The notes beneath the pieces were generated by a model that saw only the letters and a program-made list of their open reading frames with translations, did not search any database and was not told the origin of the DNA. Shown one piece after another: positions 1 through 47,419 of a stretch of 48,243 nucleotides of DNA (position 1 is its first letter; the number at the start of each line of letters is the position of its first letter). Source of the DNA: a phage; the sequence record PZ150741.1; one strand, 5' to 3'. The position numbers and the translations under genes were made by a program.

Positions 1-35
1 GGAGATGCAACAATACAAACACCAATAAAATTTAC

Positions 36-64
36 TTGCACACTAAGATAGAATATGCTACTAT
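36..64 (+). promoter_or_regulatory. sigma70-like promoter (TTGCAC-17 bp-TACTAT)
   Basis: -35 TTGCAC at 36-41, 17-bp spacer, -10 TACTAT at 59-64; followed by conserved leader AACGAGAGGAGAGG and ATG at 95. Confidence 0.6.
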
Positions 65-94
65 TCATTTACACAAACGAGAGGAGAGGCAGAT

Positions 95-244
95 ATGGTT
101 ACTTTGATGGTTATGGAGTTCGAAAACAGCACCGCAACTTACCGCGAGATGACTATGGCGCAGGCGTATCACCTGGCCTCAAACGGCAACTTCTACAAGG
201 CCCAAATCATCAACGAGTTCGGGGTAATTGACTATGAATTTTAA
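95..244 (+). CDS. hypothetical small protein (49 aa)
   Basis: ATG at 95 preceded by GAGGAGAGG Shine-Dalgarno; stop overlaps next start (ATGA); below the 60-aa ORF-track cutoff. Confidence 0.45.
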   Translation: MVTLMVMEFENSTATYREMTMAQAYHLASNGNFYKAQIINEFGVIDYEF

Positions 245-506
245 CAGTTACACCGTTACCGTTGATTTTGAGGGGCTGGAGCTGCCCCTCCCTAACAACT
301 ACCGGTATATCTCACGCGACTGTAACGGGTTTATTCAGGGGTGGCGGAACAAACCGACAGATACTGAGTTCGGGATGTCTGGCGGGGAAGAGTTGCCGAT
401 CACTTTCGGACATCAGAGTAGCAACGAAGAACTTAAAACCGTGATTCGTAAGTATCGCCGCCGCGGTAACACCGGACTTATAGCAATAACAGGCGCGGTT
501 GAATAA
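234..506 (+). CDS. hypothetical protein (90 aa)
   Basis: Track ORF 228-506; first ATG at 234 with GGGG upstream. Confidence 0.5.
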   Translation: MNFNSYTVTVDFEGLELPLPNNYRYISRDCNGFIQGWRNKPTDTEFGMSGGEELPITFGHQSSNEELKTVIRKYRRRGNTGLIAITGAVE

Positions 507-525
507 ACGAGAGGAGAGACAGAAG

Positions 526-744
526 ATGTTCCTGGAATGCAAATCCTATGAAGGCTATTGGGCGCTGACCAAAAACGACCTGTACCACCTCAAAGAAGAC
601 GGCGACGAGAGCCGCTGCTACATAATAGACGACAATGGCACTGAACTTGATGTCTATTACACCGGGTATGGTCGATGGGCGTTATTGGCGGACGATGACT
701 TTGTGTTCGAAGAATATAACGGAGAGGAGCCAGAAGATGAGTAA
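526..744 (+). CDS. hypothetical protein (72 aa)
   Basis: Track ORF 499-744; ATG at 526 preceded by AACGAGAGGAGAGACAGAAG leader/SD. Confidence 0.5.
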   Translation: MFLECKSYEGYWALTKNDLYHLKEDGDESRCYIIDDNGTELDVYYTGYGRWALLADDDFVFEEYNGEEPEDE

Positions 745-1339
745 CAAAAACGAAGTATTAGAATACCTGATTGACCAGCTACGGCAGCAGCTACCGGTAG
801 TAGATGTAATGGGTGAAATAAAACGGTGGAGCATAGACCGTAGTATTGCTGGCCGAGGTAACTATACCGAAGAGGAAAACGCCGTAATCGATGCTTACAT
901 CGGCCTGGAGCACAACCCATACAAGCAACAGTGCGAAGACCTGGCACATGAGGTGCAGTCACTCAAGAATCAGTTACGCGACGCTTCGGCGCTGGTGGCT
1001 GAGTTACAGAGCGACAACATTAAGAAATCTGAGCACATATCGCACCTGTCGGAACTGGTGGACGAGTTGATGGGGACTATAACGTTAATGAACGGGGACG
1101 TTGAGGCTTACAAAGTTCTACGCAAAGGTGGGTACGTGCCTGAGCAATCCGGTTGCCGTAAGGACGATACCCAGGAATGCGAGCATGAGTGGCGATGTGT
1201 GGTAGTTTTTGGGAATAGACTTGGGACCCCGTATTGCCGTAAATGTGGTGCGGCTAAACCTGAAGAATGCAAGCACGAATGGCAATTTTACGGAGTCGGG
1301 TTTCCTTGTATGTGCCTTAAATGCGGGTTAAAGAAATGA
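738..1339 (+). CDS. hypothetical protein, coiled-coil N-terminus and tandem Cys-rich zinc-ribbon-like C-terminus
   Basis: Track ORF 635-1339; ATG at 738 after GGAGAGGAG SD; C-terminus has two repeats of ECxHEW...CxKCG. Confidence 0.5.
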
Positions 1340-1539
1340 CCAGCATCCTTTTTATCTGGGTACTGTCTGCAGGTCAGATGCATCTGGCGGCATCAGAAAC
1401 GTTTTACTCGATGGAGGCGTGCCGGTCAGCGGCACGCGCCGCAGAGAACGCACACTTCCTGTTTCAGGGCGACAAGCCCAACGATTCAGAGGTACGCGCT
1501 ATCTGCTCACCTAAGCGACTTGGTAAACAGGAGAAGTGA
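1336..1539 (+). CDS. hypothetical small protein with hydrophobic signal-peptide-like N-terminus
   Basis: Track ORF 1321-1539; ATG at 1336 overlaps upstream stop (ATGA); N-terminus MTSILFIWVLSAGQMHLAAS. Confidence 0.4.
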   Translation: MTSILFIWVLSAGQMHLAASETFYSMEACRSAARAAENAHFLFQGDKPNDSEVRAICSPKRLGKQEK

Positions 1540-1541
1540 TT

Positions 1542-1790
1542 ATGGTTAAATTATACGCAGAGCGCGATTTAGAAATGCTCGACATGACTAACAATTACTA
1601 TTCAAGACATGTGATGGCTATGACGGAGGAAGGATTGAACAGTAAATCATCTATCGCTGCTGAGTTGGCGTACCGTGACTGGATTATTGATGAACAGCAA
1701 AAAGAGTTACAGAAATACAAAGACCAGTTCCCGGATTACGTCGAGTGCGCGAACTGTGGGTTGGTCACACATGTGGAAGGGGTAGAGTGA
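1542..1790 (+). CDS. hypothetical protein (82 aa)
   Basis: Track ORF 1536-1790; ATG at 1542 after AGGAGAAG. Confidence 0.45.
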   Translation: MVKLYAERDLEMLDMTNNYYSRHVMAMTEEGLNSKSSIAAELAYRDWIIDEQQKELQKYKDQFPDYVECANCGLVTHVEGVE

Positions 1791-1792
1791 TT

Positions 1793-2011
1793 ATGATATT
1801 CAGAGACCGTAGCAGCTTAAGAACACCGGATTGTCCTACGTTCGAGTTCGAAGACAAAGACGGAGATGTATGCTGTATTCAATTTTATAGAGACGATGAA
1901 GGTGAGTGCGGGCTTGTAGAGTTGCAGGTTTACAGTGAAACCGGTTGTGTTGTATTAAGTGCAGATGATGCGGAATCACTAGCTCGTAAGATACTTGAGG
2001 GCGTTAAATGA
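1793..2011 (+). CDS. hypothetical protein (72 aa)
   Basis: Track ORF 1745-2011; ATG at 1793 after GAAGGGG, follows upstream stop. Confidence 0.45.
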   Translation: MIFRDRSSLRTPDCPTFEFEDKDGDVCCIQFYRDDEGECGLVELQVYSETGCVVLSADDAESLARKILEGVK

Positions 2012-2301
2012 GCCTCGCAACTGACATCCTGAAACGAAGCGGCCTTGCGCCGCTGTCACCGAGAGCGAACACCCAAATATACAAGCGCCGCCGTAATGCG
2101 CTGTACCCCGAGATTCAGGCCAGACGCAAAGCTATCCGCGCCTGTGGATTCCAGAACGGGAAGGCCGTGAATCTCGGTGAGTTTAAAACACAGGAACGCG
2201 CAGCAATCGCTAACCGGTTATTTAATTACTGGAAATCGCTGGGGTACGATGATATTCCGACGAAACCACAGAGACGACAATACATCTGGAGACACAAATA
2301 A
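2008..2301 (+). CDS. hypothetical basic protein (97 aa)
   Basis: Track ORF; start overlaps upstream stop; Arg/Lys-rich. Confidence 0.45.
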   Translation: MSLATDILKRSGLAPLSPRANTQIYKRRRNALYPEIQARRKAIRACGFQNGKAVNLGEFKTQERAAIANRLFNYWKSLGYDDIPTKPQRRQYIWRHK

Positions 2302-2376
2302 ACAACTATTAGGATAATTCCTACCCGTGGTATCCTCCAGTTACTGCATACTTAATACGCACCTGGAGGATTCATC

Positions 2377-2685
2377 TTGGATAAATTTACTGAAACAGTG
2401 ACAGGCTGGCTTCTAGCTGCCGCGCTCGCCGGAGGGGTAATCGGACTACGACAACATAAGTCCGTTATTTCTGGCCCCACCGACGGCTTCTGCTTTATTG
2501 CTACTGGCTTCACTTGCGCCGTATTTGGTGCACCTCTTGCCGCTCAATGGTTCGGAATCACGGGCGACCGTGAAATCGCCGGGTTGGGCTTCATTATCGC
2601 TGTTCTCTGGATGCCTATCTATTCCCGTCTATCCAGTATCGTAGCCGGGGAATACATCGCACGTCGAGGAGGCACAGATGAATGA
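2377..2685 (+). CDS. holin-like membrane protein (about 3 TM segments)
   Basis: TTG start after GGAGGA; three hydrophobic segments; directly upstream of second membrane protein and endolysin. Confidence 0.45.
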   Translation: MDKFTETVTGWLLAAALAGGVIGLRQHKSVISGPTDGFCFIATGFTCAVFGAPLAAQWFGITGDREIAGLGFIIAVLWMPIYSRLSSIVAGEYIARRGGTDE

Positions 2686-2950
2686 GTTATTCTGGTTCGG
2701 CGGTATGCTGGCAATCGGGGGCACATCGCTGTTTAATGTGTACCACCCCAGCGTGGACGATGGGTTATTTGGTAGGGTGCTCTATATCCTGACAGCTATC
2801 GTCTGCGCCGCCGGATGTATCCACTTGCTACAGGGCAGCATGTCCCCGACGCTGCCTGAGACGTTAATCACATTAGTTGCGCTGCGCCAGATTCGCCAGG
2901 CGTGGTTGTCATACGGAGGACATAAGCGTGTCTCGAAATATTTCAGATAA
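2678..2950 (+). CDS. holin/antiholin-like membrane protein (2 TM segments)
   Basis: Two hydrophobic helices; overlaps both neighbours in the lysis cassette. Confidence 0.45.
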   Translation: MNELFWFGGMLAIGGTSLFNVYHPSVDDGLFGRVLYILTAIVCAAGCIHLLQGSMSPTLPETLITLVALRQIRQAWLSYGGHKRVSKYFR

Positions 2951-3416
2951 TGGGTTGCATTTTACCGCTGCGTTCGAGGGATTCCGCGGAACTGCGTATC
3001 GTGCTACGCCGAACGAGAAGTACCTGACTATAGGCTATGGAAGCTACGGTCCGCATGTTAAGGCGGGGCAAACCATCACGCCTGGTCAGGGCTTACTATT
3101 ACTTAATCGCGATATGGCTAAAGCCGTAGTTGCGGTTGATGCGGCGGCGCACCACTCATTGACACAGGCGCAGTTCGATGCAGTGTGCGACCTGGTGTAT
3201 AACGCGGGTGCCGGAGTGATTGCGGCTACTACTGGCACAGGTAAGGCACTGCGTTCTGGCGATATTGCGACACTGCGGGCTAAGCTGGCGCTGTTCATCA
3301 ACCAGAACGGCAAACCGTTACTTGGCTTACGTCGTCGCGTAGCTGGTCGCCTGGCGCTGTTCGACGGTAAACCGTGGCAGGAGGCGGAGGCTATTGGACG
3401 TGCGGTGAAAGGTTGA
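2928..3416 (+). CDS. endolysin, GH24 lysozyme (T4/P22 lysozyme-like)
   Basis: GTG at 2928 after GGAGGA; motifs ISDNG, FEGF...YLTIGYG, QFDAVCDLVYNAG, RRRVAGRLALF resemble P22 gp19/T4 e lysozymes. Confidence 0.85.
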   Translation: MSRNISDNGLHFTAAFEGFRGTAYRATPNEKYLTIGYGSYGPHVKAGQTITPGQGLLLLNRDMAKAVVAVDAAAHHSLTQAQFDAVCDLVYNAGAGVIAATTGTGKALRSGDIATLRAKLALFINQNGKPLLGLRRRVAGRLALFDGKPWQEAEAIGRAVKG

Positions 3417-3480
3417 CACATAAGACTAATCCGACGATACTTAAATCACCTCCTGCTCCATCCCTCTGCTCTCCAGTTTT

Positions 3481-3512
3481 ATCCCGGCCCTGACCCAGCC
3501 GGGATTTTTTTT
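3481..3512 (+). terminator. rho-independent terminator after lysis cassette
   Basis: Hairpin ATCCCGGC-CCTGACCCA-GCCGGGAT followed by T8 run. Confidence 0.8.
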
Positions 3513-3534
3513 ATCTATTTTCTGTAATGAATAG

Positions 3535-3563
3535 TTGACTATTACTCTGACCCCAATTATATT
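3535..3563 (+). promoter_or_regulatory. sigma70-like promoter (TTGACT-17 bp-TATATT)
   Basis: Immediately downstream of terminator; followed by AACGAGAACGGAG leader and ATG at 3598. Confidence 0.55.
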
Positions 3564-3597
3564 TACTTCATCGACAACGAGAACGGAGTAGAGAGAA

Positions 3598-3846
3598 ATG
3601 GGCAACGTATCGACGATAGAAATAACCGAAGAACTCGAAGATAAATGCATCGCATGGACTATGGATAATGACCCGGTTGCTATGTGTAAATTTCCAATGA
3701 AAATCACAGATACCGAAGCATTCAAAGACGCACAACTGATGGCACGCATCGCCGTTAGTAACCTGAGCAATAGCATTCCAGCGGACGCGTTCTGGTTCGC
3801 CGCAATGCAGACACTGAAAGCAGCTTATGCAGGAGAGAAGAAATGA
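3598..3846 (+). CDS. hypothetical protein (82 aa)
   Basis: Track ORF; strong SD GGAGTAGAGAGAA. Confidence 0.5.
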   Translation: MGNVSTIEITEELEDKCIAWTMDNDPVAMCKFPMKITDTEAFKDAQLMARIAVSNLSNSIPADAFWFAAMQTLKAAYAGEKK

Positions 3847-4046
3847 ACAACGTCACCGTTGGCGGCATTTATAAGAGTCGTCACTCTTGGAATGAGGGTG
3901 CAAGATTCATTGTAACCGCGGTTGGGTTGGACCACGTGCTTATCGCGGACCACCCATTGATAAAATTCAATGAATCCTATTTGGAATATTGTGTTGGTAG
4001 AAAGGAGTTCGAGACTAAATTTAAGTTTGCAGGAGAGAAGAAATGA
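3843..4046 (+). CDS. hypothetical protein (67 aa)
   Basis: Track ORF; ATGA overlap; SD AGGAGAGAAG. Confidence 0.5.
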   Translation: MNNVTVGGIYKSRHSWNEGARFIVTAVGLDHVLIADHPLIKFNESYLEYCVGRKEFETKFKFAGEKK

Positions 4047-4201
4047 GTGAACAAGGTCAAGTAAGCCAGCCACTACGAGTAGGCCGTAAAGTCAGTCGCA
4101 CCCCGTTCCCGACACGCGAGGAACTGATGAAACGTAACAGTTTCCCGGGGCCGGACAAGAACAAGTATCTCAATCGTATGTGGGGAGAGCGTAAAGAATG
4201 A
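4043..4201 (+). CDS. hypothetical small protein (52 aa)
   Basis: ATG at 4043 after AGGAGAGAAG; ATGA overlap with next gene; below track cutoff. Confidence 0.4.
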   Translation: MSEQGQVSQPLRVGRKVSRTPFPTREELMKRNSFPGPDKNKYLNRMWGERKE

Positions 4202-4368
4202 AAAAGTTAATTGCAGATGTTGAACTCGGTGATGTTATTCGTATTGATGACGACTACGGCGGCTACGACGTAGTGGTGAAGCACATCGAGTGGGATTCTA
4301 CGTTGCCATTTGTCACGATTAACCGTGAAATAATGTTCACTAAAACTGATTGGGTAGAGGTTCGATAA
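4198..4368 (+). CDS. hypothetical small protein (56 aa)
   Basis: ATG at 4198 after GGGGAGAG; below track cutoff. Confidence 0.4.
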   Translation: MKKLIADVELGDVIRIDDDYGGYDVVVKHIEWDSTLPFVTINREIMFTKTDWVEVR

Positions 4369-4541
4369 TGACTAACAACGAATACGAGAAACTTAGCGTA
4401 GAAGCGGCGACCGGTGAATCTGAAATAGCGTGGATTGACGCCAACATCGAGCACTACCTACGGCAAGTAGACATCCTTATGGAACGCCGCCGTGAACTGA
4501 TTAACCGCTTCAACCTGAACAAAGGTGACGCCAATGCCTAA
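4368..4541 (+). CDS. hypothetical protein (57 aa)
   Basis: Track ORF 4350-4541; ATG at 4368 overlaps upstream TAA. Confidence 0.45.
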   Translation: MTNNEYEKLSVEAATGESEIAWIDANIEHYLRQVDILMERRRELINRFNLNKGDANA

Positions 4542-4719
4542 AATCACAATTGCATCACTAGAGCGCCGTATTCTGGTGCTCGAGTCAGAGAAACAGACGT
4601 TAGGCGGTCAACTGTCGATTAACGGCGAGTTTCAACTGGAGGCGTTTAAGATGCTACTTGAACGCATGAAGGACGAGGAAGATTGGGCGCATTCCTTGCA
4701 AGACCTCTGGCAATACTAA
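4534..4719 (+). CDS. hypothetical coiled-coil protein (61 aa)
   Basis: Track ORF 4525-4719; ATG at 4534 after AAAGGTGA. Confidence 0.45.
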   Translation: MPKITIASLERRILVLESEKQTLGGQLSINGEFQLEAFKMLLERMKDEEDWAHSLQDLWQY

Positions 4720-9047: not shown

Positions 9048-10124
9048 ATGCTATTAACTTTAGCGCCACAGGGTTTATCTATGAGCTTACTTACATCCCT
9101 AATCAGCCACCAGATTTGGCTGCAACGCACCGCATCAGGCGAGGTGAAAGACCTCGCACCGTTCATTCAGGAAATGCGAGACGAAATCAAACGGCAGGTG
9201 CTGTTGTTCGGTGACGACGGGCGAAGCACTGCGCGGCTGAATAAACTATTACGCGACCTGGAAGAAGCACTGACCGGACTTACAGGTGACTGGCAGACAA
9301 AGCTGATAGAAGACCTTAAGGAACTGGCGGCGTATGAAGCAGAGTGGAACGTAAAGACACTGGCAGCCAACGTAGATGCGGAATTTGTTACGCCTACCGC
9401 TGAACAGGTGTGGGCCGCTGCCGAGTTTCAGCCATTATCGTTAAGCGACAAGCCTGTTGACTTCACTAAGCTGATGTCGGGATGGGGTGAAACCGAAATA
9501 GCACGTCTTGTAACCGGCGTTAAGATGGGCTTTGTCCAAGGCCAGACTACACGGCAGATTGTTAAGAATGTTGTTGGCGCCGGCGGGCTGGCGGACATCA
9601 CTGAACGTAATGCAGCTACGGTAATCCGCACCGCGCTGTCTCACGTATCCAACGAAGCGCGTAACGAGACGTATAGGCAGAACGACGACATCATCGAGAA
9701 ATATGAATGGGTTTCGACGCTGGACAGCCGTACCAGTACGATTTGCAGGGCCAGAGATGGAATGACGTGGGAAATCGATAAAGGGCCGATACCCCCCGCC
9801 CATCCGAACTGTCGAAGTACCACTGCACCCGTAATAAGTTCTGAGTTCGACTTCCTCGATAAAGGGGCGAAACGCGCGGCTAAGGGCGCAGACGGCGGTA
9901 CTCAGGTAAGCGCAGATACCACTTATTACGAGTTCCTGAAACAGCAACCGGCGTGGTTTCAGGACCAGGCGCTCGGCCCTGTTCGCGGTAAGATTTTCCG
10001 TAACAGCGGTATATCGCCGGAAGAGTTTCGCGTAATATCTGTAGATGGTTTCGGGAATCCGCTCACGCTTAAGCAGATGGCGGAACTCGATAAACGTGTT
10101 GCTGATTATCTGAAAGGGGATTAA
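9048..10124 (+). CDS. head morphogenesis protein (Mu F / SPP1 gp7-like)
   Basis: Conserved C-terminal motif STICRARDG...PPAHPNCRST typical of the MuF family; position after portal. Confidence 0.8.
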   Translation: MLLTLAPQGLSMSLLTSLISHQIWLQRTASGEVKDLAPFIQEMRDEIKRQVLLFGDDGRSTARLNKLLRDLEEALTGLTGDWQTKLIEDLKELAAYEAEWNVKTLAANVDAEFVTPTAEQVWAAAEFQPLSLSDKPVDFTKLMSGWGETEIARLVTGVKMGFVQGQTTRQIVKNVVGAGGLADITERNAATVIRTALSHVSNEARNETYRQNDDIIEKYEWVSTLDSRTSTICRARDGMTWEIDKGPIPPAHPNCRSTTAPVISSEFDFLDKGAKRAAKGADGGTQVSADTTYYEFLKQQPAWFQDQALGPVRGKIFRNSGISPEEFRVISVDGFGNPLTLKQMAELDKRVADYLKGD

Positions 10125-10585
10125 TGATGGGCTTTTTCAAAGTAACTGATGTGCCGTCGCGTCGCGTAGTTCAGTACGCCCGAGTGTCTGGCTCCGGTGA
10201 GAACGTGGTGTTTATTGAAGATGAAAGCGTACTGGGTACACCTGTAGACGATATGCCGTTTGCAGATAAAACCGGTATTTCGCTGCCCGCGGCTGGTATG
10301 CTTTACGAGATTCCGTATCTGGCGGACGCTGGCGACGTGTATTTCTCTGCGCAACCGAAAGACACGGAACTGACGAACGGCAGCGCAACTATCACTGTCG
10401 AAGTTAAGGCAGGCAAAGCGCCATATGCGTTGACCTGGTACAAAGACGGTAAGGAAGTGGTAAACGCCCCGGAAGAGGCTTTGTCTCTGACGGTCAATTC
10501 GGCCGGTGAATACTTCGTTAAAGTCACAGATGCCGATGGAGTAGAGGCTGTGAGTAAAGCGGCGAAGGTTACTAAGCCAGAATGA
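10124..10585 (+). CDS. Ig-like domain protein (possible capsid decoration)
   Basis: C-terminal YALTWYKDGKEV...GEYFVKVTDADG pattern typical of I-set/Big-type Ig domains; ATGA overlap with MuF gene. Confidence 0.5.
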   Translation: MMGFFKVTDVPSRRVVQYARVSGSGENVVFIEDESVLGTPVDDMPFADKTGISLPAAGMLYEIPYLADAGDVYFSAQPKDTELTNGSATITVEVKAGKAPYALTWYKDGKEVVNAPEEALSLTVNSAGEYFVKVTDADGVEAVSKAAKVTKPE

Positions 10586-10586
10586 T

Positions 10587-10614
10587 AAAAGGCCCCTTTC
10601 GGGGCCTTAGTTTT
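10587..10614. terminator. bidirectional terminator AAGGCCCC-TTTC-GGGGCCTT
   Basis: 8-bp GC stem flanked by A-run and T-run; lies between convergent genes. Confidence 0.8.
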
Positions 10615-10837
10615 AAACTTCCACGTCTATCACCAAATCACCAGGCATGGTTATGACTATTTTATCGTTTTCATAGAACGGGCTAAGAGGCTCATTTTCA
10701 GACTGCAAACGTAAAGTTAGCTTTTTACCACCAAAATAATCTATGTAACGAACCCAGTACCACTCATCGAATACCTGTACCTTTTCTCCCGGGAGTACAT
10801 CTCTAGCTTTCTTTTGGTTCATAAATCTAATCGGCAT
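10613..10837 (-). CDS. hypothetical protein (74 aa), reverse-oriented accessory gene
   Basis: Track ORF with GGAGG SD; own promoter upstream and terminator downstream. Confidence 0.55.
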   Translation of the reverse strand: MPIRFMNQKKARDVLPGEKVQVFDEWYWVRYIDYFGGKKLTLRLQSENEPLSPFYENDKIVITMPGDLVIDVEV

Positions 10838-10863
10838 AAATACCTCCTGTTTAAGTTGGCTGA

Positions 10864-10892
10864 ATAGTACCCTATTATGTTGGGGTGCGCAA
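10864..10892 (-). promoter_or_regulatory. sigma70-like promoter (TTGCGC-17 bp-TACTAT) for 10613-10837
   Basis: Reverse complement reads TTGCGCACCCCAACATAATAGGGTACTAT; near-identical to promoters at 19711 and 42572. Confidence 0.65.
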
Positions 10893-10958
10893 ACTATTTA
10901 TTTACCCATTCCAGTTATTACACCAAAGTGTAAATGATGGAATAAACTATTCGAATAG

Positions 10959-10987
10959 TTGACTTTTCACTAAAAATGTGCTAAGCT
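10959..10987 (+). promoter_or_regulatory. possible promoter (TTGACT-17 bp-TAAGCT)
   Basis: Good -35, weaker -10; at the head of a 316-bp non-coding stretch. Confidence 0.3.
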
Positions 10988-11165
10988 CCACCTGAGCTTG
11001 TGAAGTATGAACAAGCGACCGCGGCGCGGGCAGGTAACGGAGCGGGACGTAAGTCCTGAGTGTAGTTACGCTGACGCGTTCGGAAGGGCCATACTCTATT
11101 GCTTGTGTGAAAAGTAACTGGTTTACTGAGATTACGCCGTTTCTATGTTTAAATGATAAGGGCTA

Positions 11166-11194
11166 GCGCCCCGCTTTATGGCGGGGCTTTACTT
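11166..11194 (+). terminator. terminator/attenuator-like hairpin GCCCCGC-TTTATG-GCGGGGC plus TTT
   Basis: 7-bp GC stem with short U tract about 20 nt upstream of spanin start. Confidence 0.45.
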
Positions 11195-11211
11195 ATCGAG
11201 AAAGGAGAAAC

Positions 11212-11601
11212 ATGGATCTTAAAGCAACTGTCGTAGCAGGAGCATGTTTCATCATCCTGGCTTACGCACACGGCATCTATCAATACCGAAGCGGCTGGAA
11301 CGAAGGCCGGGCGAATCTCGTTTCGCAGCAACAGCAGGAAGCACAAGCTGAGTTAGCGAAGAAAACACAACGGCAGCAGCAGGACGAATCAAAGGCCGCA
11401 GCCGCTGACAACGAAGGCAAGACGAAATCAGAGGTGATTACCCGTGAAGTCGTTAAGTACATTAAAACGCCTGGCCGCAGCGTGTGCACTTTCGATGATG
11501 CTCGTGTCCTGCTCAAGTCCCGCGCCGTCGCAAACGCCAATTCCATCCCCGGATATGACGATGATGCAGCCACCGTGCAAACTGGCGCCGCCAAGCAGTG
11601 A
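11212..11601 (+). CDS. i-spanin (Rz-like)
   Basis: N-terminal TM segment, Gln/Ala/Lys-rich coiled-coil region, and an embedded out-of-frame lipoprotein ORF. Confidence 0.6.
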   Translation: MDLKATVVAGACFIILAYAHGIYQYRSGWNEGRANLVSQQQQEAQAELAKKTQRQQQDESKAAAADNEGKTKSEVITREVVKYIKTPGRSVCTFDDARVLLKSRAVANANSIPGYDDDAATVQTGAAKQ

Positions 11602-11707
11602 TGCTGACGAGGATTTAGCTATCGATGTTCAGAATGCCGAATGTGCACGGCAACTGCGTCTGAAGGTGTTCATGTTGCAGGATTATGTGAGGAATATTCT
11701 GGAATAG
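11444..11707 (+). CDS. o-spanin (Rz1-like outer-membrane lipoprotein)
   Basis: GTG start after GAGGTGA; signal peptide ending in lipobox LVSC; Pro-rich mature region; overlaps i-spanin in a different frame. Confidence 0.6.
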   Translation: MKSLSTLKRLAAACALSMMLVSCSSPAPSQTPIPSPDMTMMQPPCKLAPPSSDADEDLAIDVQNAECARQLRLKVFMLQDYVRNILE

Positions 11708-11789
11708 TTGCCTTGCATGTTGGAATAATTTATTCTTGACATGTAAATCCGGGTGGCCCGGATTCCAACGTCCAGGGGACATACTGACT

Positions 11790-12491
11790 ATGAATCGTTT
11801 TTTACGTTATCCGTTCCAGGAAGAAGCTGGAGCAGAAGATAAAGCTGGCGGCGGTGACGCACCGAAAATGTTCACAGCCGAAGAAGTTCAGGCGCTGATT
11901 GAGAAAGAAGTTGCCGGGCTTAAGGCCAATCAGGAAGCTTTGCTGGCGGAGAAGAAAGAAGCCGCTCGTAGAGCAAAAGAGGCTGAAGAAGAACGGCAGC
12001 GCGCGCACCAGGAGGCGTTAAAAGCCGCTGGTAAGATGGACGAGTTCGAAAAGACGATTCGTAGCCAGTATGACCCGGTGTTAGCCGAGAAAGATGGTCG
12101 CATCTCCAGAATGGCAGAGCGCATCCTCGGCAGCGAACGTAAAGCGGTGTTAGGCTCTTTCGCAGGGGACTTTATTACCCCGGAAGCAGTAGACATTCTG
12201 GCTCCGTTCGTTAAGACTGAGTTCGAAGGCGATGATGTGGTTACTAAGTTTGTCGGCGCAGACGGTAACGTAATCACGACTGACCCGGAACAGTTCCGCA
12301 AATACCTGCGCGAACACAAAGCGTTTTCGCATTTGATTAAAGCAAATGCAGCTTCCGGCGGCGGGGCTTCCGGTAGCAAAGGCGGCGGGGCCGCACCAGC
12401 GTTTAAAGACATGAGTGAAGCGGAGCGTTTAGCTCTGTACAAATCGAACCCTGCCGAATTTGAACGGCAACTTAAAGCCCTGAGGAAATAA
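11790..12491 (+). CDS. capsid scaffolding protein
   Basis: Track ORF 11736-12491, likely start ATG 11790; highly charged coiled-coil sequence; immediately upstream of major capsid gene. Confidence 0.6.
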   Translation: MNRFLRYPFQEEAGAEDKAGGGDAPKMFTAEEVQALIEKEVAGLKANQEALLAEKKEAARRAKEAEEERQRAHQEALKAAGKMDEFEKTIRSQYDPVLAEKDGRISRMAERILGSERKAVLGSFAGDFITPEAVDILAPFVKTEFEGDDVVTKFVGADGNVITTDPEQFRKYLREHKAFSHLIKANAASGGGASGSKGGGAAPAFKDMSEAERLALYKSNPAEFERQLKALRK

Positions 12492-12493
12492 TA

Positions 12494-13543
12494 ATGGCAA
12501 TTACCACTATCGGCGATATCGTAACTGGCAACATTCCGGTTCTGGCGTCTTACATGACAGAAGACCCGGTAGAAAAAACCGCGTTCTTCCAGTCCGGTAT
12601 TCTGACCCCGACTCCGTACGCTGCTGAGATTGCCCGCGGCCCGTCCAACATCGCTAATATTCCTTTCTGGAAAGCGATTGACACTTCCATCGAGCCTAAC
12701 TACTCGAACGACGTATACCAGGACATCGCCACCCCGCGTAATGTCCAGACCGGCGAGATGATGGCCCGCGTTGCGTACCTGAACGAAGGTTTCGGCCAGG
12801 CGGATTTGACCGTTGAACTGACCAGCCAGAACCCGCTGCAATCCGTAGCGTCCCGTCTGGATAACTTCTGGCAGCGCCAGGCGCAACGCCGTCTGATTGC
12901 TACCGCGCTTGGCCTGTACAACGACAACGTGGCCGCTACCGACGCATACCACGAGCAGAACGACATGGTAATTGACGTGTCCGCTACTCTGGGCTTCGAC
13001 TCCGGCGCGTTCATCGATGCTACCCAGACTATGGGTGACGCTCTGATTGGCAACGGCGGCGAAGTGCTGGGTGCTATTGCTATGCACAGCTTTGTGTATG
13101 CGCAGGCACGTAAGCAGCAGCTTATTGACTTCATCCGTGACGCGGACAACAACACCATGTTCGCCACCTACCAGGGGTACCGCGTGATTGTTGACGACAG
13201 CATGACCGTAGTCGGTACTGGCCCGAGTCGTAAGTTCATTTCCATCATCTTCGGCAACGGCGCTATCGGTTATGGTGAAGGTAATCCGGTTAAACCGCTG
13301 CATTACGAGTACGAAGCGTCCCGCGGCAACGGCGGCGGCGTTGAAACCCTGTGGACCCGTAAGACCTGGCTGCTGCATCCGTTTGGCTACAGCTTCACCA
13401 GCGCAGTAATCACCGGTAACGGTACTGAGACTACCCCGCGCTCTGCTTCCTGGCAGGACCTGGCGAACGCCTCCAACTGGAACCGCGTTGTTGAGCGTAA
13501 GCATGTACCGATTGCCTTCCTGGTAACTGGTGTCGGTGCTTAA
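12494..13543 (+). CDS. major capsid protein
   Basis: 349-aa ORF immediately after scaffold gene, followed by strong terminator; size and position typical of HK97-fold capsid proteins. Confidence 0.75.
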   Translation: MAITTIGDIVTGNIPVLASYMTEDPVEKTAFFQSGILTPTPYAAEIARGPSNIANIPFWKAIDTSIEPNYSNDVYQDIATPRNVQTGEMMARVAYLNEGFGQADLTVELTSQNPLQSVASRLDNFWQRQAQRRLIATALGLYNDNVAATDAYHEQNDMVIDVSATLGFDSGAFIDATQTMGDALIGNGGEVLGAIAMHSFVYAQARKQQLIDFIRDADNNTMFATYQGYRVIVDDSMTVVGTGPSRKFISIIFGNGAIGYGEGNPVKPLHYEYEASRGNGGGVETLWTRKTWLLHPFGYSFTSAVITGNGTETTPRSASWQDLANASNWNRVVERKHVPIAFLVTGVGA

Positions 13544-13558
13544 GGTTAAGCTATAATC

Positions 13559-13586
13559 GAGAGGGACTTCGGTCCCTCTTTTCATT
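13559..13586 (+). terminator. hairpin GAGGGAC-TTCG-GTCCCTC plus T-run
   Basis: After major capsid gene; likely partial terminator for transcript abundance. Confidence 0.7.
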
Positions 13587-29195: not shown

Positions 29196-29224
29196 ACTAA
29201 GGCCCCTTTCGGGGCCTTTTCTCT
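29196..29224. terminator. bidirectional terminator AAGGCCCC-TTTC-GGGGCCTT
   Basis: Third copy of the same hairpin; separates convergent late and replication blocks. Confidence 0.8.
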
Positions 29225-37831: not shown

Positions 37832-37977
37832 TCCGTAATCTCCACAATACGCGCATTAGTGAAACTGCGTTCGAAGCCGAATGTATAGAAGACATGCCGC
37901 GCTTCCTCAAGATGGGCGTAACGGCTATGTTCCTGGTCTTTACCGTCTATTTCTACGACTATCGCGTATCTTGTCAT
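37828..37977 (-). CDS. possible small protein (49 aa)
   Basis: ATGA-coupled at both ends to neighbouring genes; below track cutoff. Confidence 0.3.
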   Translation of the reverse strand: MTRYAIVVEIDGKDQEHSRYAHLEEARHVFYTFGFERSFTNARIVEITE

Positions 37978-42201: not shown

Positions 42202-42475
42202 ACATAATCGCACCTATTGACATTATGAAAATCTTCGTTTAAGGTGCTTCTATATCTTAGTTACTTTGATTCCTGTTCACCTTGTAAATCCGCTTAAACC
42301 GTGCGTTAAGCAAAGGGTTAAGCGCAAGTTTACTGAACATGAGAATTATTGTAACTTTCCTTCCTAAGTATCTCAGGTTGCCCTGGGCGAGCTATATTCT
42401 CATCGGCAGCATATCTCTTAAGTATCTGATTTTCTTAAAGTGCCGTAGATTCGCAACCGTAAAAATGTAACCCTT

Positions 42476-42506
42476 ACCGGGCAGGCTTAAGGCCTGCCCT
42501 TTAGTT
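42476..42506 (+). terminator. terminator hairpin GGGCAGGC-TTAAG-GCCTGCCC plus TTTAGTT inside control region
   Basis: 8-bp perfect stem plus T-rich tail; no annotated upstream + strand gene. Confidence 0.5.
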
Positions 42507-42571
42507 ACCAAGTAATAAGAATAAAGGCACAACCTTCCCTAAAGAATCACAACGGCAACGTAACTATTCTC

Positions 42572-42600
42572 TTGCACACCCCAACATAATAGGATACTAT
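42572..42600 (+). promoter_or_regulatory. sigma70-like promoter (TTGCAC-17 bp-TACTAT)
   Basis: TTGCACACCCCAACATAATAGGATACTAT; followed by AACGAGACAGAGGAG leader and ATG 42635. Confidence 0.65.
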
Positions 42601-42634
42601 TCACTTATCGAAACGAGACAGAGGAGTGAGGGTT

Positions 42635-43530: not shown

Positions 43531-43611
43531 TTTTTGTTCTATTTCACGAAACGCAACAATTGAAGCTACTATTGCAGGAGATGCAACAATACAAACACCA
43601 ATAAAATTTAC

Positions 43612-43640
43612 TTGCACACTAAGATAGAATATGCTACTAT
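43612..43640 (+). promoter_or_regulatory. sigma70-like promoter, copy of 36-64
   Basis: Duplicate within repeat. Confidence 0.6.
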
Positions 43641-43670
43641 TCATTTACACAAACGAGAGGAGAGGCAGAT

Positions 43671-43820
43671 ATGGTTACTTTGATGGTTATGGAGTTCGAA
43701 AACAGCACCGCAACTTACCGCGAGATGACTATGGCGCAGGCGTATCACCTGGCCTCAAACGGCAACTTCTACAAGGCCCAAATCATCAACGAGTTCGGGG
43801 TAATTGACTATGAATTTTAA
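43671..43820 (+). CDS. hypothetical small protein (copy of 95-244)
   Basis: Duplicate within repeat. Confidence 0.45.
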   Translation: MVTLMVMEFENSTATYREMTMAQAYHLASNGNFYKAQIINEFGVIDYEF

Positions 43821-44082
43821 CAGTTACACCGTTACCGTTGATTTTGAGGGGCTGGAGCTGCCCCTCCCTAACAACTACCGGTATATCTCACGCGACTGTA
43901 ACGGGTTTATTCAGGGGTGGCGGAACAAACCGACAGATACTGAGTTCGGGATGTCTGGCGGGGAAGAGTTGCCGATCACTTTCGGACATCAGAGTAGCAA
44001 CGAAGAACTTAAAACCGTGATTCGTAAGTATCGCCGCCGCGGTAACACCGGACTTATAGCAATAACAGGCGCGGTTGAATAA
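43810..44082 (+). CDS. hypothetical protein (copy of 234-506)
   Basis: Duplicate within repeat. Confidence 0.5.
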   Translation: MNFNSYTVTVDFEGLELPLPNNYRYISRDCNGFIQGWRNKPTDTEFGMSGGEELPITFGHQSSNEELKTVIRKYRRRGNTGLIAITGAVE

Positions 44083-44101
44083 ACGAGAGGAGAGACAGAA
44101 G

Positions 44102-44320
44102 ATGTTCCTGGAATGCAAATCCTATGAAGGCTATTGGGCGCTGACCAAAAACGACCTGTACCACCTCAAAGAAGACGGCGACGAGAGCCGCTGCTACATA
44201 ATAGACGACAATGGCACTGAACTTGATGTCTATTACACCGGGTATGGTCGATGGGCGTTATTGGCGGACGATGACTTTGTGTTCGAAGAATATAACGGAG
44301 AGGAGCCAGAAGATGAGTAA
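44102..44320 (+). CDS. hypothetical protein (copy of 526-744)
   Basis: Duplicate within repeat. Confidence 0.5.
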   Translation: MFLECKSYEGYWALTKNDLYHLKEDGDESRCYIIDDNGTELDVYYTGYGRWALLADDDFVFEEYNGEEPEDE

Positions 44321-44915
44321 CAAAAACGAAGTATTAGAATACCTGATTGACCAGCTACGGCAGCAGCTACCGGTAGTAGATGTAATGGGTGAAATAAAAC
44401 GGTGGAGCATAGACCGTAGTATTGCTGGCCGAGGTAACTATACCGAAGAGGAAAACGCCGTAATCGATGCTTACATCGGCCTGGAGCACAACCCATACAA
44501 GCAACAGTGCGAAGACCTGGCACATGAGGTGCAGTCACTCAAGAATCAGTTACGCGACGCTTCGGCGCTGGTGGCTGAGTTACAGAGCGACAACATTAAG
44601 AAATCTGAGCACATATCGCACCTGTCGGAACTGGTGGACGAGTTGATGGGGACTATAACGTTAATGAACGGGGACGTTGAGGCTTACAAAGTTCTACGCA
44701 AAGGTGGGTACGTGCCTGAGCAATCCGGTTGCCGTAAGGACGATACCCAGGAATGCGAGCATGAGTGGCGATGTGTGGTAGTTTTTGGGAATAGACTTGG
44801 GACCCCGTATTGCCGTAAATGTGGTGCGGCTAAACCTGAAGAATGCAAGCACGAATGGCAATTTTACGGAGTCGGGTTTCCTTGTATGTGCCTTAAATGC
44901 GGGTTAAAGAAATGA
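44314..44915 (+). CDS. zinc-ribbon-like protein (copy of 738-1339)
   Basis: Duplicate within repeat. Confidence 0.5.
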
Positions 44916-45115
44916 CCAGCATCCTTTTTATCTGGGTACTGTCTGCAGGTCAGATGCATCTGGCGGCATCAGAAACGTTTTACTCGATGGAGGCGTGCCG
45001 GTCAGCGGCACGCGCCGCAGAGAACGCACACTTCCTGTTTCAGGGCGACAAGCCCAACGATTCAGAGGTACGCGCTATCTGCTCACCTAAGCGACTTGGT
45101 AAACAGGAGAAGTGA
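44912..45115 (+). CDS. hypothetical small protein (copy of 1336-1539)
   Basis: Duplicate within repeat. Confidence 0.4.
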   Translation: MTSILFIWVLSAGQMHLAASETFYSMEACRSAARAAENAHFLFQGDKPNDSEVRAICSPKRLGKQEK

Positions 45116-45117
45116 TT

Positions 45118-45366
45118 ATGGTTAAATTATACGCAGAGCGCGATTTAGAAATGCTCGACATGACTAACAATTACTATTCAAGACATGTGATGGCTATGAC
45201 GGAGGAAGGATTGAACAGTAAATCATCTATCGCTGCTGAGTTGGCGTACCGTGACTGGATTATTGATGAACAGCAAAAAGAGTTACAGAAATACAAAGAC
45301 CAGTTCCCGGATTACGTCGAGTGCGCGAACTGTGGGTTGGTCACACATGTGGAAGGGGTAGAGTGA
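45118..45366 (+). CDS. hypothetical protein (copy of 1542-1790)
   Basis: Duplicate within repeat. Confidence 0.45.
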   Translation: MVKLYAERDLEMLDMTNNYYSRHVMAMTEEGLNSKSSIAAELAYRDWIIDEQQKELQKYKDQFPDYVECANCGLVTHVEGVE

Positions 45367-45368
45367 TT

Positions 45369-45587
45369 ATGATATTCAGAGACCGTAGCAGCTTAAGAAC
45401 ACCGGATTGTCCTACGTTCGAGTTCGAAGACAAAGACGGAGATGTATGCTGTATTCAATTTTATAGAGACGATGAAGGTGAGTGCGGGCTTGTAGAGTTG
45501 CAGGTTTACAGTGAAACCGGTTGTGTTGTATTAAGTGCAGATGATGCGGAATCACTAGCTCGTAAGATACTTGAGGGCGTTAAATGA
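45369..45587 (+). CDS. hypothetical protein (copy of 1793-2011)
   Basis: Duplicate within repeat. Confidence 0.45.
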   Translation: MIFRDRSSLRTPDCPTFEFEDKDGDVCCIQFYRDDEGECGLVELQVYSETGCVVLSADDAESLARKILEGVK

Positions 45588-45877
45588 GCCTCGCAACTGA
45601 CATCCTGAAACGAAGCGGCCTTGCGCCGCTGTCACCGAGAGCGAACACCCAAATATACAAGCGCCGCCGTAATGCGCTGTACCCCGAGATTCAGGCCAGA
45701 CGCAAAGCTATCCGCGCCTGTGGATTCCAGAACGGGAAGGCCGTGAATCTCGGTGAGTTTAAAACACAGGAACGCGCAGCAATCGCTAACCGGTTATTTA
45801 ATTACTGGAAATCGCTGGGGTACGATGATATTCCGACGAAACCACAGAGACGACAATACATCTGGAGACACAAATAA
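45584..45877 (+). CDS. hypothetical basic protein (copy of 2008-2301)
   Basis: Duplicate within repeat. Confidence 0.45.
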   Translation: MSLATDILKRSGLAPLSPRANTQIYKRRRNALYPEIQARRKAIRACGFQNGKAVNLGEFKTQERAAIANRLFNYWKSLGYDDIPTKPQRRQYIWRHK

Positions 45878-45952
45878 ACAACTATTAGGATAATTCCTAC
45901 CCGTGGTATCCTCCAGTTACTGCATACTTAATACGCACCTGGAGGATTCATC

Positions 45953-46261
45953 TTGGATAAATTTACTGAAACAGTGACAGGCTGGCTTCTAGCTGCCGCG
46001 CTCGCCGGAGGGGTAATCGGACTACGACAACATAAGTCCGTTATTTCTGGCCCCACCGACGGCTTCTGCTTTATTGCTACTGGCTTCACTTGCGCCGTAT
46101 TTGGTGCACCTCTTGCCGCTCAATGGTTCGGAATCACGGGCGACCGTGAAATCGCCGGGTTGGGCTTCATTATCGCTGTTCTCTGGATGCCTATCTATTC
46201 CCGTCTATCCAGTATCGTAGCCGGGGAATACATCGCACGTCGAGGAGGCACAGATGAATGA
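45953..46261 (+). CDS. holin-like membrane protein (copy of 2377-2685)
   Basis: Duplicate within repeat. Confidence 0.45.
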   Translation: MDKFTETVTGWLLAAALAGGVIGLRQHKSVISGPTDGFCFIATGFTCAVFGAPLAAQWFGITGDREIAGLGFIIAVLWMPIYSRLSSIVAGEYIARRGGTDE

Positions 46262-46526
46262 GTTATTCTGGTTCGGCGGTATGCTGGCAATCGGGGGCAC
46301 ATCGCTGTTTAATGTGTACCACCCCAGCGTGGACGATGGGTTATTTGGTAGGGTGCTCTATATCCTGACAGCTATCGTCTGCGCCGCCGGATGTATCCAC
46401 TTGCTACAGGGCAGCATGTCCCCGACGCTGCCTGAGACGTTAATCACATTAGTTGCGCTGCGCCAGATTCGCCAGGCGTGGTTGTCATACGGAGGACATA
46501 AGCGTGTCTCGAAATATTTCAGATAA
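46254..46526 (+). CDS. holin/antiholin-like membrane protein (copy of 2678-2950)
   Basis: Duplicate within repeat. Confidence 0.45.
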   Translation: MNELFWFGGMLAIGGTSLFNVYHPSVDDGLFGRVLYILTAIVCAAGCIHLLQGSMSPTLPETLITLVALRQIRQAWLSYGGHKRVSKYFR

Positions 46527-46990
46527 TGGGTTGCATTTTACCGCTGCGTTCGAGGGATTCCGGAACTGCGTATCGTGCTACGCCGAACGAGAAGTACCTG
46601 ACTATAGGCTATGGAAGCTACGGTCCGCATGTTAAGGCGGGGCAAACCATCACGCCTGGTCAGGGCTTACTATTACTTAATCGCGATATGGCTAAAGCCG
46701 TAGTTGCGGTTGATGCGGCGGCGCACCACTCATTGACACAGGCGCAGTTCGATGCAGTGTGCGACCTGGTGTATAACGCGGGTGCCGGAGTGATTGCGGC
46801 TACTACTGGCACAGGTAAGGCACTGCGTTCTGGCGATATTGCGACACTGCGGGCTAAGCTGGCGCTGTTCATCAACCAGAACGGCAAACCGTTACTTGGC
46901 TTACGTCGTCGCGTAGCTGGTCGCCTGGCGCTGTTCGACGGTAAACCGTGGCAGGAGGCGGAGGCTATTGGACGTGCGGTGAAAGGTTGA
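46504..46990 (+). pseudogene. endolysin copy disrupted by 2-bp deletion (frameshift)
   Basis: Relative to 2928-3416, CGCG becomes CG at 46561; reading frame breaks after FEGFR; track splits it into 46453-46635 and 46526-46990. Confidence 0.8.
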
Positions 46991-47054
46991 CACATAAGAC
47001 TAATCCGACGATACTTAAATCACCTCCTGCTCCATCCCTCTGCTCTCCAGTTTT

Positions 47055-47085
47055 ATCCCGGCCCTGACCCAGCCGGGATTTTTTT
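47055..47085 (+). terminator. terminator copy with T7 instead of T8
   Basis: Same hairpin as 3481-3512, one T shorter. Confidence 0.8.
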
Positions 47086-47107
47086 ATCTATTTTCTGTAA
47101 TGAATAG

Positions 47108-47136
47108 TTGACTATTACTCTGACCCCAATTATATT
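47108..47136 (+). promoter_or_regulatory. sigma70-like promoter, copy of 3535-3563
   Basis: Duplicate within repeat. Confidence 0.55.
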
Positions 47137-47170
47137 TACTTCATCGACAACGAGAACGGAGTAGAGAGAA

Positions 47171-47419
47171 ATGGGCAACGTATCGACGATAGAAATAACC
47201 GAAGAACTCGAAGATAAATGCATCGCATGGACTATGGATAATGACCCGGTTGCTATGTGTAAATTTCCAATGAAAATCACAGATACCGAAGCATTCAAAG
47301 ACGCACAACTGATGGCACGCATCGCCGTTAGTAACCTGAGCAATAGCATTCCAGCGGACGCGTTCTGGTTCGCCGCAATGCAGACACTGAAAGCAGCTTA
47401 TGCAGGAGAGAAGAAATGA
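47171..47419 (+). CDS. hypothetical protein (copy of 3598-3846)
   Basis: Duplicate within repeat. Confidence 0.5.
   Translation: MGNVSTIEITEELEDKCIAWTMDNDPVAMCKFPMKITDTEAFKDAQLMARIAVSNLSNSIPADAFWFAAMQTLKAAYAGEKK

Follow-up and report, generated by a model that had tools for sequence, protein, structure and literature searches.

We analysed a 48,243-nucleotide stretch of phage DNA (PZ150741.1; we will call this whole stretch the window), and in particular the gap at 10893-11211, just upstream of the genes for an Rz-like spanin. The region and its flanks matched 301 phage records (megablast), all of them Escherichia/Salmonella siphoviruses of the Guernseyvirinae (Kagunavirus and Jerseyvirus), and judging by these matches the window is a Guernseyvirinae (Kagunavirus-like) phage genome. 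The best explanation for the gap is that it is the regulatory head of the late spanin-scaffold-capsid operon. It contains a putative sigma-70-type promoter, from which transcription would begin at about G10994, and a predicted leader of ~200 nt (~10994-11197), which we are highly confident is a real structured non-coding RNA. By their positions and protein families, the i-spanin and the o-spanin are the first genes of the operon that this leader heads, and the scaffold and the major capsid protein are next. (The spanin genes matched Rz-like spanin families in PHROG with E = 1.5e-54 and 1e-29.) The features of the leader and of the operon are:

10959-10987, + strand: predicted sigma-70-type promoter, with TTGACT (10959-10964), a 17-bp spacer, and the extended -10 TGc TAAGCT (10979-10987)
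10996-11016, + strand: P1, 5'-terminal hairpin of 6 bp (GCUUGU/ACAAGC), 2 nt from the predicted 5' end
11019-11083, + strand: P2, irregular hairpin of 65 nt and 23 bp with three helical segments
11019-11028 with 11075-11083, + strand: P2a
11031-11038 with 11065-11073, + strand: P2b
11043-11048 with 11053-11058, + strand: P2c, capped by a GUAA loop
11084-11101, + strand: conserved unpaired tail, AAGGGCCAUACUCUAUUG (AAGGGCC...CUAUUG)
11102-11154, + strand: AT-rich middle region, with a weak hairpin at ~11114-11126 and the conserved stretch GAUUACGCCGUUUCUAUGUUUAAAU
11155-11197, + strand: P4, two-part hairpin, with the outer helix GAUAAG (11155-11160) / CUUAUC (11192-11197)
11168-11187, + strand: inner GC stem of P4, 8 pairs of which 7 are G-C, followed by TTTACTTATC (UUUA)
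11203-11207, + strand: ribosome-binding site of the spanin, AGGAG
11212-11601, + strand: i-spanin (PHROG Rz-like spanin family)
11444-11707, + strand: o-spanin, embedded in the i-spanin gene (PHROG Rz-like spanin family)
11790-12491, + strand: scaffold gene
12494-13543, + strand: major capsid protein gene
13559-13580, + strand: strong terminator, 3' of the capsid gene and ahead of the connector and tail genes

A previous reading of the window from its sequence alone (the sequence-only reading) had described a gap of 316 bp without any open reading frame (ORF) of at least 60 aa. We count 319 bases in this interval, and the ORF listing confirms the rest: on the + strand, the ORFs in 10893-11211 have just 25, 36, and 27 aa, and on the - strand, an ORF of 56 aa overlaps the 3' end. 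The gap had also been described as GC-rich, but its overall GC content is 44.5%, versus 50.8% for the window. Only the 5' RNA domain (10994-11101, 57%) and P2 (66%) are GC-rich; the flanks are at 35-37%.

Covariation and conservation of the leader

Folded as a single sequence, the leader has a long hairpin but is unremarkable (z = -1.89). We built a covariance model from near-identical sequences, with the structure set by hand, and this model recovered diverged versions from Jerseyviruses at the same genomic position (35-43 bits) as well as paralogous copies. The final alignment contains 76 sequences, of which 47 are distinct. Standard pairs fill 96.7% of its 1313 pair cells, versus 32-37% if the partners are slid by 1-3 columns, although the alignments behind these pair counts were fitted to the model, which favours structure and is a point against our reading. 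None of 500 shuffles matched the observed pairing values. P1 is 98.9% paired and the helices of P2 are 94-99% paired. Both sides change in 19 of the 29 pairs, and within the P2 helices, in 15 of 23. For example, one pair in P2a is C-G in 26 sequences, U-A in 16, and A-U in 4; an independent, plain MAFFT alignment likewise has C-G, U-A, and A-U at that pair. On the opposite strand, the conserved G-U pairs would read as A-C mismatches, which assigns the fold to RNA of the + strand.

The leader is also more conserved than the genes that it precedes. With blastn, 181 records matched 10838-11211 alone; 177 of these cover at least 80% of the query, and all but one of the 177 are at least 90% identical. 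We aligned 29 distinct Kagunavirus-type loci and computed the mean pairwise identity of each segment:

promoter: 0.949
5' RNA domain: 0.956
middle region: 0.964
3' hairpin: 0.964
i-spanin: 0.891
scaffold: 0.929
capsid gene: 0.887

The diversity at third codon positions of the i-spanin, scaffold, and capsid genes is 0.17-0.26. Because the identity of the leader is 0.956-0.964 while that of the genes is 0.887-0.929, this non-coding stretch evolves several-fold more slowly than the neighbouring synonymous sites. By this comparison, the whole leader is under purifying selection. The sequence-only reading had suggested either a structured leader or a small RNA, had proposed a covariation analysis with homologous phages, and had asked whether the region is conserved among relatives. 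The compensatory changes, the conserved G-U pairs, and the conservation above that of the neighbouring genes (at least 90% identity in ~180 records) all support an RNA of this kind.

The 36-codon open reading frame

A short ORF starting at about 10999 had been raised as a possible gene. It actually lies slightly further downstream:

11007-11117, + strand: 36-codon ORF, spurious, not a gene

Gene finders call this ATG-initiated ORF in phages Bas70, SE124, and Snoke, several GenBank records list the 36-residue product as a hypothetical protein, and the ORF is intact in most Kagunavirus copies. But several lineages have a broken version: in a set of 33 distinct leaders of the Kagunavirus type, it is shortened to 9 codons in three lineages and to 17 codons in a fourth; it is frameshifted in locus L012, has lost its ATG in L061, and is extended in two others. 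It is missing from the Jerseyvirus version. The length of the 5' domain varies from 105 to 110 nt, with insertions and deletions that are not multiples of three. At the first, second, and third codon positions, the diversity is 0.057, 0.047, and 0.034 in the ORF, with no third-position excess, as compared to 0.050, 0.026, and 0.262 in the capsid gene. Furthermore, intact copies differ by amino acid changes that include the non-conservative R/L, A/P, and L/G, and the product has no match to any PHROG family. The ATG sits in the loop of P1, one base after a weak GAAG, and in Snoke, a paralogous copy is annotated as a coding sequence on the opposite strand. With the ORF broken and its codon-position diversity flat, the protein reading is effectively refuted on comparative grounds, and we give it next to no credence. 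This corrects a recurrent mis-annotation, in which a "hypothetical protein" is called over an RNA hairpin.

Promoters and operator-like repeats

The sequence-only reading had placed a candidate promoter at 10959-10987, and this held up. The -10 hexamer, TAAGCT (10982-10987), has TG two bases upstream (10979-10980), which makes it an extended -10; a simple consensus scanner missed this promoter because TAAGCT fits just 3 of 6 positions. The full 29-base promoter pattern occurs once in the window and not at all in shuffles. Both hexamers and the TG are the same in all of ~50 homologues, whereas the spacer and the discriminator (-10 to +1) differ among them. Invariant hexamers with a drifting spacer are the pattern expected for a working promoter, which would start transcription near G10994. 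(TGAGCT at 10993-10998 is also similar to a -10 hexamer, but its second position is not the essential A.) Upstream of the promoter, we found two other elements:

10861-10892, - strand: divergent promoter-like inverted-repeat motif (TTGCGC, 17 bases, TACTAT), which faces the 74-aa gene at 10613-10837
10905-10960, no strand: operator-like repeats between the two divergent promoters

On inspection of the sequence, the operator-like repeats include, ahead of the leader promoter, the inverted repeat ATTCCA/TGGAAT (10908-10940) and, overlapping its -35 element, the perfect 16-bp palindrome AACTATTCGAATAGTT (10945-10960, also seen as a self-match). The palindrome is present in the late-locus copy of the element only and not in the early-locus copy that we describe below; more distant relatives have TGGAATAAATTATTCCA in its place. 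The GAATAGTTGAC context is found again at 3529 and 47102, at a promoter before small genes upstream of the terminase genes. The palindrome and the inverted repeats are probably operator sites for a phage regulator, whose binding we infer, and the strong host sigma-70 promoter is probably controlled via these adjacent palindromes.

The divergent motif is a separate matter. The exact 32-base motif has 3 copies in the window and none in shuffles: TTGCRCACCCCAACATAATAGGRTACTATTCA is present in three near-identical copies, at 10861-10892 (- strand), 19708-19739 (- strand), and 42572-42603 (+ strand). It is plausible that this motif is a sigma-70 promoter and an inverted repeat at once. A motif of the TTGCRCACCCCAACATAATAGGRTACTATTCA type equals the "phage promoter" that was reported, with seven copies, in Kagunavirus fBC-Eco01 (PMC9825357).

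A second copy and exchangeable cassettes

In many Kagunaviruses, the promoter and the P1-P2 domain are present again at ~37.7 kb, between a divergent helix-turn-helix/primase operon and a rightward early operon. Both copies are present in at least 16 Kagunavirus contigs from IMG/VR and in Snoke. The two copies are homologous exactly from the -35 element onwards, and past the tail of the 5' domain this homology fades. In the early-locus copy, a terminator-like hairpin comes next, and then a second promoter. We found no second copy in the window, including with filters off. At its early locus, the window has a different structured RNA:

42218-42512, + strand: early locus of the window, with a promoter (TTGACA, 17 bp, TAAGGT) and a different structured RNA

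This early RNA (fold z = -4.23) has a long 5' hairpin of ~100 nt (~42259-42356) and, at 42467-42507, a terminator-like hairpin in two parts; a second promoter (42572-42603) comes next. It is 70-96% conserved in ~295 records and is the common type across Jerseyviruses, and sister phages have compensatory variants of its apical helix.

When we compared early loci (L004, L009, L047, L128, and L194-L204), we found at least four unrelated cassettes, each with a promoter and a long 5' hairpin, which combine freely with three 3' hairpin modules. One of these cassettes is the P1-P2 element; another has a promoter region that also occurs in the late leader of more distant relatives (L097, L099, and L102). 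At the late locus of more distant relatives (whose spanin is ~50% identical), there are other structured leaders or an operator-rich leader. Given the mosaic early loci and the alternative late leaders, the element thus belongs to a group of "promoter + structured RNA" modules that can be exchanged. It invariably lies immediately 5' of the operon and in the same orientation, and this includes the distant relatives with other types of leader.

Two other observations concern the early locus. One type of early leader contains tandem repeats of CTCA, with ~7 units in L009 (~4340-4370) and 3-4 units in L004 (~37880-37900); this tract is C-rich, G-poor, and unstructured. We also considered and rejected a link to satellites that are similar to phage P4: an 83% homologue in PQ561396, which was the only diverged match by BLAST and lies near an AlpA-like gene and a primase, is actually a Kagunavirus fragment with the early-locus copy.

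The second copy adjoins the primase/helicase operon, the replication proteins are annotated as T7-like, and the region is AT-rich and repeat-rich with divergent promoters. These features would fit an element that acts as DNA, such as a transcription-activated replication origin for a T7-like replisome, where the promoter and its transcript would prime or open the DNA. But the compensatory changes and the G-U pairs indicate that the fold of an RNA from one strand is selected, which an R-loop neither needs nor benefits from, and the late-locus copy lies among structural genes. We consider a DNA-level element to be very improbable.

Conserved loops and hairpins of the leader

P1 is replaced by another hairpin in Jerseyviruses (UACGCU-UUC-AGCGUA) and by still other versions in more distant relatives. 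The internal loops of P2 are partly conserved (GGAG/GAAG on the 5' side and AGUGUA/AGCGUA on the 3' side), while its apical loop varies freely. That the loops of P2 are partly kept while its helices covary suggests a specific partner rather than generic double-stranded RNA. GGAAGGG is the family's most widely conserved motif, and is found in both copies (1 and 2) from Kagunaviruses and in the Jerseyvirus version; CGGAAGGGUC occurs in more distant leaders. The middle region is partly common to the Jerseyvirus version and copy 2. We found no covariation-supported partner for AAGGGCC in the tail or for the middle region. By eye, some parts of the leader weakly resemble boxA-like, ops-like, and sigma-pause-like motifs, and we make no claim about these.

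The hairpins could be explained by processing or by stability. The long hairpins would be signals for RNase III or related to RNase E: P1 would shield the primary 5' end, P2 and/or the extended P4 would be cut in read-through transcripts, and P4 would be left as a protective 5' hairpin on the mature spanin-scaffold-capsid mRNA, as at the RNase III sites of T7 or at lambda sib. Indeed, P1 is within 2 nt of the predicted 5' end, and P4 forms 14-17 bp once CUUAUC has been transcribed. As modelled, P2 (23 bp with internal loops) has the quasi-continuous helix of ~20 bp or more, with internal loops, of an RNase III site. A long hairpin before the ribosome-binding site of the spanin is the one feature common to all types of leader in the subfamily, including those without a U tract. 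Unrelated early cassettes also start with long hairpins, which suggests a generic property of double-stranded RNA. However, a generic role for the hairpins leaves the near-invariant unpaired segments and the internal loops unexplained, cutting P2 at 25-90 nt from the 5' end has no obvious benefit, and the cleavage of P2 or P4 is itself a prediction. We regard processing as a serious but rather doubtful explanation.

The sequence-only reading had noted a GC hairpin with a short T tract before the spanin gene. The hairpin is there (11168-11187, followed by UUUA), but it is the inner part of a longer, two-part hairpin. The inner stem ends 24 nt before the ATG of the spanin (11212). With the outer helix, P4 folds at -23.0 kcal/mol and has 14 bp (17 bp, perfectly paired, in L013), which is reached only after CUUAUC is transcribed. 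The two-part design recurs with other sequences in the Jerseyvirus version (UAUACG/CGUAUA), in copy 2a (AGAGUAC/GUACUCU), and in the early leader of the window (GUAAC/GUUAC), and the two arms of the inner stem have changed together in L005 (GCCCTGC/GCAGGGC, a compensatory change). Instead of a U tract, Jerseyviruses have UUAG after the inner stem. Therefore, a canonical intrinsic terminator is not the conserved feature.

This bears on the earlier proposal that the leader is an attenuator that controls the spanin. More broadly, the leader might be a ligand- or protein-sensing attenuator, or a translational operator, for the spanin gene: it has a structured domain, then a terminator-like hairpin 24 nt before the start codon, and the internal-loop motif of P2 is conserved. 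But the apical loop of P2 varies freely, no riboswitch or leader family in Rfam matches (diverged versions included), and neither the folds nor the consensus contain a conserved alternative pairing with the arms of the terminator, as would be expected for switching between a terminator and an antiterminator. The UUAG in Jerseyviruses also argues against an attenuator, and the operon includes the scaffold and the major capsid protein. Furthermore, the 5' domain precedes unrelated early genes as well: because the same promoter and 5' RNA cassette precedes the early operon in sister phages, the leader is not specific to the spanin. This reading seems quite improbable.

Alternatively, the RNA of ~200 nt, ending at P4, could be a trans-acting small RNA that acts on mRNAs or proteins of the host or the phage, with the spanin expressed via leaky read-through. 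It would have its own strong promoter and a 3' GC hairpin, the hairpins at both ends would stabilise it, and the AU-rich, unpaired stretch that leads up to the 3' hairpin varies very little. At the early locus, the genes have a separate promoter of their own after the homologous unit. There is also a precedent in StxS, which arises by termination of a phage late-promoter leader (PMC7547250). On the other hand, the U tract is short (UUUACUUAU, with three consecutive U) and is absent in Jerseyviruses (UUAG), and efficient termination at P4 would starve the scaffold and capsid genes, which lack a convincing promoter of their own. We found no significant complementarity in the phage genome, just chance-level matches of 11-14 nt, and no similarity in E. 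coli genomes. The invariant orientation and placement directly 5' of the operon also argue against a trans-acting RNA, which we consider unlikely but, like processing, a live rival.

Distribution of the RNA family

Against Rfam (release 15), nothing reached the gathering score; at permissive E-values (up to 10), the window had just hits of the chance level, and four diverged versions had no match at E <= 0.1. ARAGORN found no tRNA or tmRNA. A scan with a degenerate pattern found the element only in Guernseyvirinae-like viral contigs. We also rejected a wider spread among bacteria. The pattern had 15 hits in contigs from bacterial genomes, and 13 of these are chance matches to GC-rich sequence; the remaining two are on short phage-like contigs, in a metagenome-assembled genome and in a draft assembly, and are most likely phage sequence and not bacterial DNA. 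E. coli genomes had no similarity to the element, and a scan of metagenomes for contigs that end at the boundaries of the RNA found only whole phage genomes.

In the searchable literature on these phages, we found no description of this RNA family, of RNAs, or of transcript maps. The leader thus appears, from these searches, to be a previously undescribed RNA family that is confined to Guernseyvirinae, and it is a new covariation-supported family that is missing from Rfam. Guernseyvirinae (both Kagunavirus and Jerseyvirus) are widely isolated and serve as chassis for therapy and engineering, and the control of their transcription is essentially unstudied. Our analysis identifies where the genes that they express most highly probably have their promoter and leader.

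Neighbouring genes and other observations

The window's ends duplicate each other (1-4670 = 43577-48243, with 99.94% identity and two small indels). Because 1-4670 repeats at 43577-48243, the genome would be ~43.57 kb and either circularly permuted or concatenated. Upstream of the leader and its promoters are:

10124-10585, + strand: Hoc-like decoration gene, upstream of the gap
10589-10608: bidirectional terminator, 3' of the Hoc-like gene
10613-10837, - strand: variable 74-aa gene, function unknown (phrog_8705)

The same 20-bp bidirectional terminator, AAGGCCCCTTTCGGGGCCTT, is present three times in the window (10589-10608, 17900-17919, and 29199-29218), and every copy is at a switch in orientation. 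The slot between the Hoc-like gene and the leader varies by phage, with a 173-aa sliding-clamp-like protein in Snoke, a 179-aa protein in SE124, and a 67-aa protein in Bas70. By this comparison, the slot is a variable site for accessory genes.

In the sequence from P4 to the scaffold and capsid genes, no candidate promoter is convincing; TTGACA at 11731 is without a usable -10. The gap between the spanin and scaffold genes (11708-11789), where this TTGACA lies, is highly conserved, with an identity of 0.943. Within it are TGGAATAATTTATTC-TTGACA, which echoes sequence found ahead of the leader promoter, and the perfect hairpin AATCCGGG-TGG-CCCGGATT.

Just after the endolysin gene, at 3413-3515 (= 46987-47089), there is another promoter-like sequence (TTGACA, 17 bp, GATACT). 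It is followed by a C/U-rich, anti-Shine-Dalgarno-like CCUCCUGCUCCAUCCCUCUGCUCUCC and then by a strong terminator (ATCCCGGC...GCCGGGAT and a run of eight T). These elements may produce a small RNA of ~70 nt, or they may simply be the terminator of the operon.

A possible mechanism: read-through by a cis-acting RNA

The activity of the put RNAs of phage HK022 depends on the zinc-binding domain of the beta' subunit of RNA polymerase. A put RNA acts alone on RNA polymerase and suppresses pausing and termination (PMC9378689). By analogy, we tentatively suggest, as the leading mechanism, that the leader might promote transcription read-through in cis. In this scenario, P1-P2 would fold at the 5' end of the transcript while it leaves RNA polymerase, and the folded domain would act in cis on the elongating complex. 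The polymerase could thereby pass P4 and later terminators, such as the one at 13559-13580, and the complexes that fail to pass P4 would release the leader RNA of ~200 nt. The promoter with P1-P2 might then be a second, independently evolved class of RNA-only processive antiterminators, a functional analogue of put in virulent siphoviruses that depend entirely on the RNA polymerase of the host. It would be portable, placed in front of the rightward transcription units, and one of several interchangeable cassettes exchanged by recombination among Guernseyvirinae; we put this forward as a possibility, with the same reserve.

Several observations are consistent with put-like read-through. The folded domain begins at about +3, and the promoter and the RNA travel as one cassette. 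This cassette heads both rightward transcription units in at least 16 contigs, with a terminator-like hairpin after each. No antiterminator protein is annotated in Snoke, a carefully annotated relative. The scaffold and capsid genes have no other convincing promoter ahead of them, so transcripts that start at 10994 and pass P4 appear to be needed for the most abundant proteins of the virion.

Other observations weigh against put-like read-through. Transcription, read-through, and polymerase binding are all predicted from the sequence. The hairpins have 21 and 65 nt, while put has two hairpins of ~35 nt. At least three unrelated promoter-plus-hairpin cassettes can take the place of this one at the early locus, and the window itself has a different one there; a generic property (RNA stability, for instance, or the cleavage of long hairpins by RNase III) would account for this interchange no less well than a specific polymerase-binding fold. 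As P4 has no U tract in Jerseyviruses, termination at P4 may not be the conserved function. The second promoter after the early-locus RNA fits an independent RNA gene, and a put-like role would not call for an unpaired middle region that is so strongly conserved.

If RNA-only read-through is correct, then the leader would be a rare second example of the mechanism and a compact, portable part for synthetic biology. If the leader is a small RNA or a processing signal instead, then it would be a conserved step in late expression, to be respected when payloads are inserted near the capsid genes.

Comparison with known systems

As in the putL and putR elements of HK022, the hairpins of the leader come right after a sigma-70 promoter: putL pairs from +3, and so does P1 (PMC9378689). 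P1 and P2 are two adjacent stem-loops just 3' of such a promoter, on the strand of the operon. As with put, paralogous copies head two operons, although here this is so in sister phages only and the window has one copy. In both systems, the helices covary and the bulges or loops are conserved, there are terminators downstream, and no dedicated antiterminator protein is known. Unlike HK022, this is a virulent siphovirus, its leader runs for 100 more conserved nt to a two-part hairpin, and antitermination would be a prediction here. Homology to put was considered and rejected. Our covariance model had no hit at E <= 1 in 24.5-32.5 kb of HK022, where putL was located (putR was not mapped), and a short GC-rich resemblance to put (CGCGGCG..CAGG..AACGG) lies in different structural contexts. 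Given the lack of a hit and the different proportions, any likeness to put would therefore be functional and not familial.

As compared to Hfq-type small RNAs, a promoter is present here, and the terminator-like hairpin has three consecutive U in the window and none in the Jerseyvirus version.

The lambda-type late leader (PR'-6S RNA-tR', Q-dependent), with its Shiga-phage product StxS, and the element in the window both combine a strong promoter with ~200 nt of leader and a terminator-like hairpin, just before Rz/Rz1-type lysis genes and then head genes; in both, the short transcript could also serve as a small RNA (PMC7547250). In contrast to the Q system of lambda, no Q-family protein is annotated in Snoke (this is from the annotation and not from an exhaustive search). 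Also, the RNA fold itself is selected here, which Q does not require, and the terminator is weak or absent in Jerseyviruses.

Finally, the leader has no sequence similarity to the RNase III hairpins of T7 or to sib of lambda, and it lies at the extreme 5' end of the transcript and not between cistrons. Like them, it has paralogous, irregular hairpins of ~60 nt with conserved internal loops in the leaders of operons, and its terminator hairpin is extended by read-through into a longer helix.

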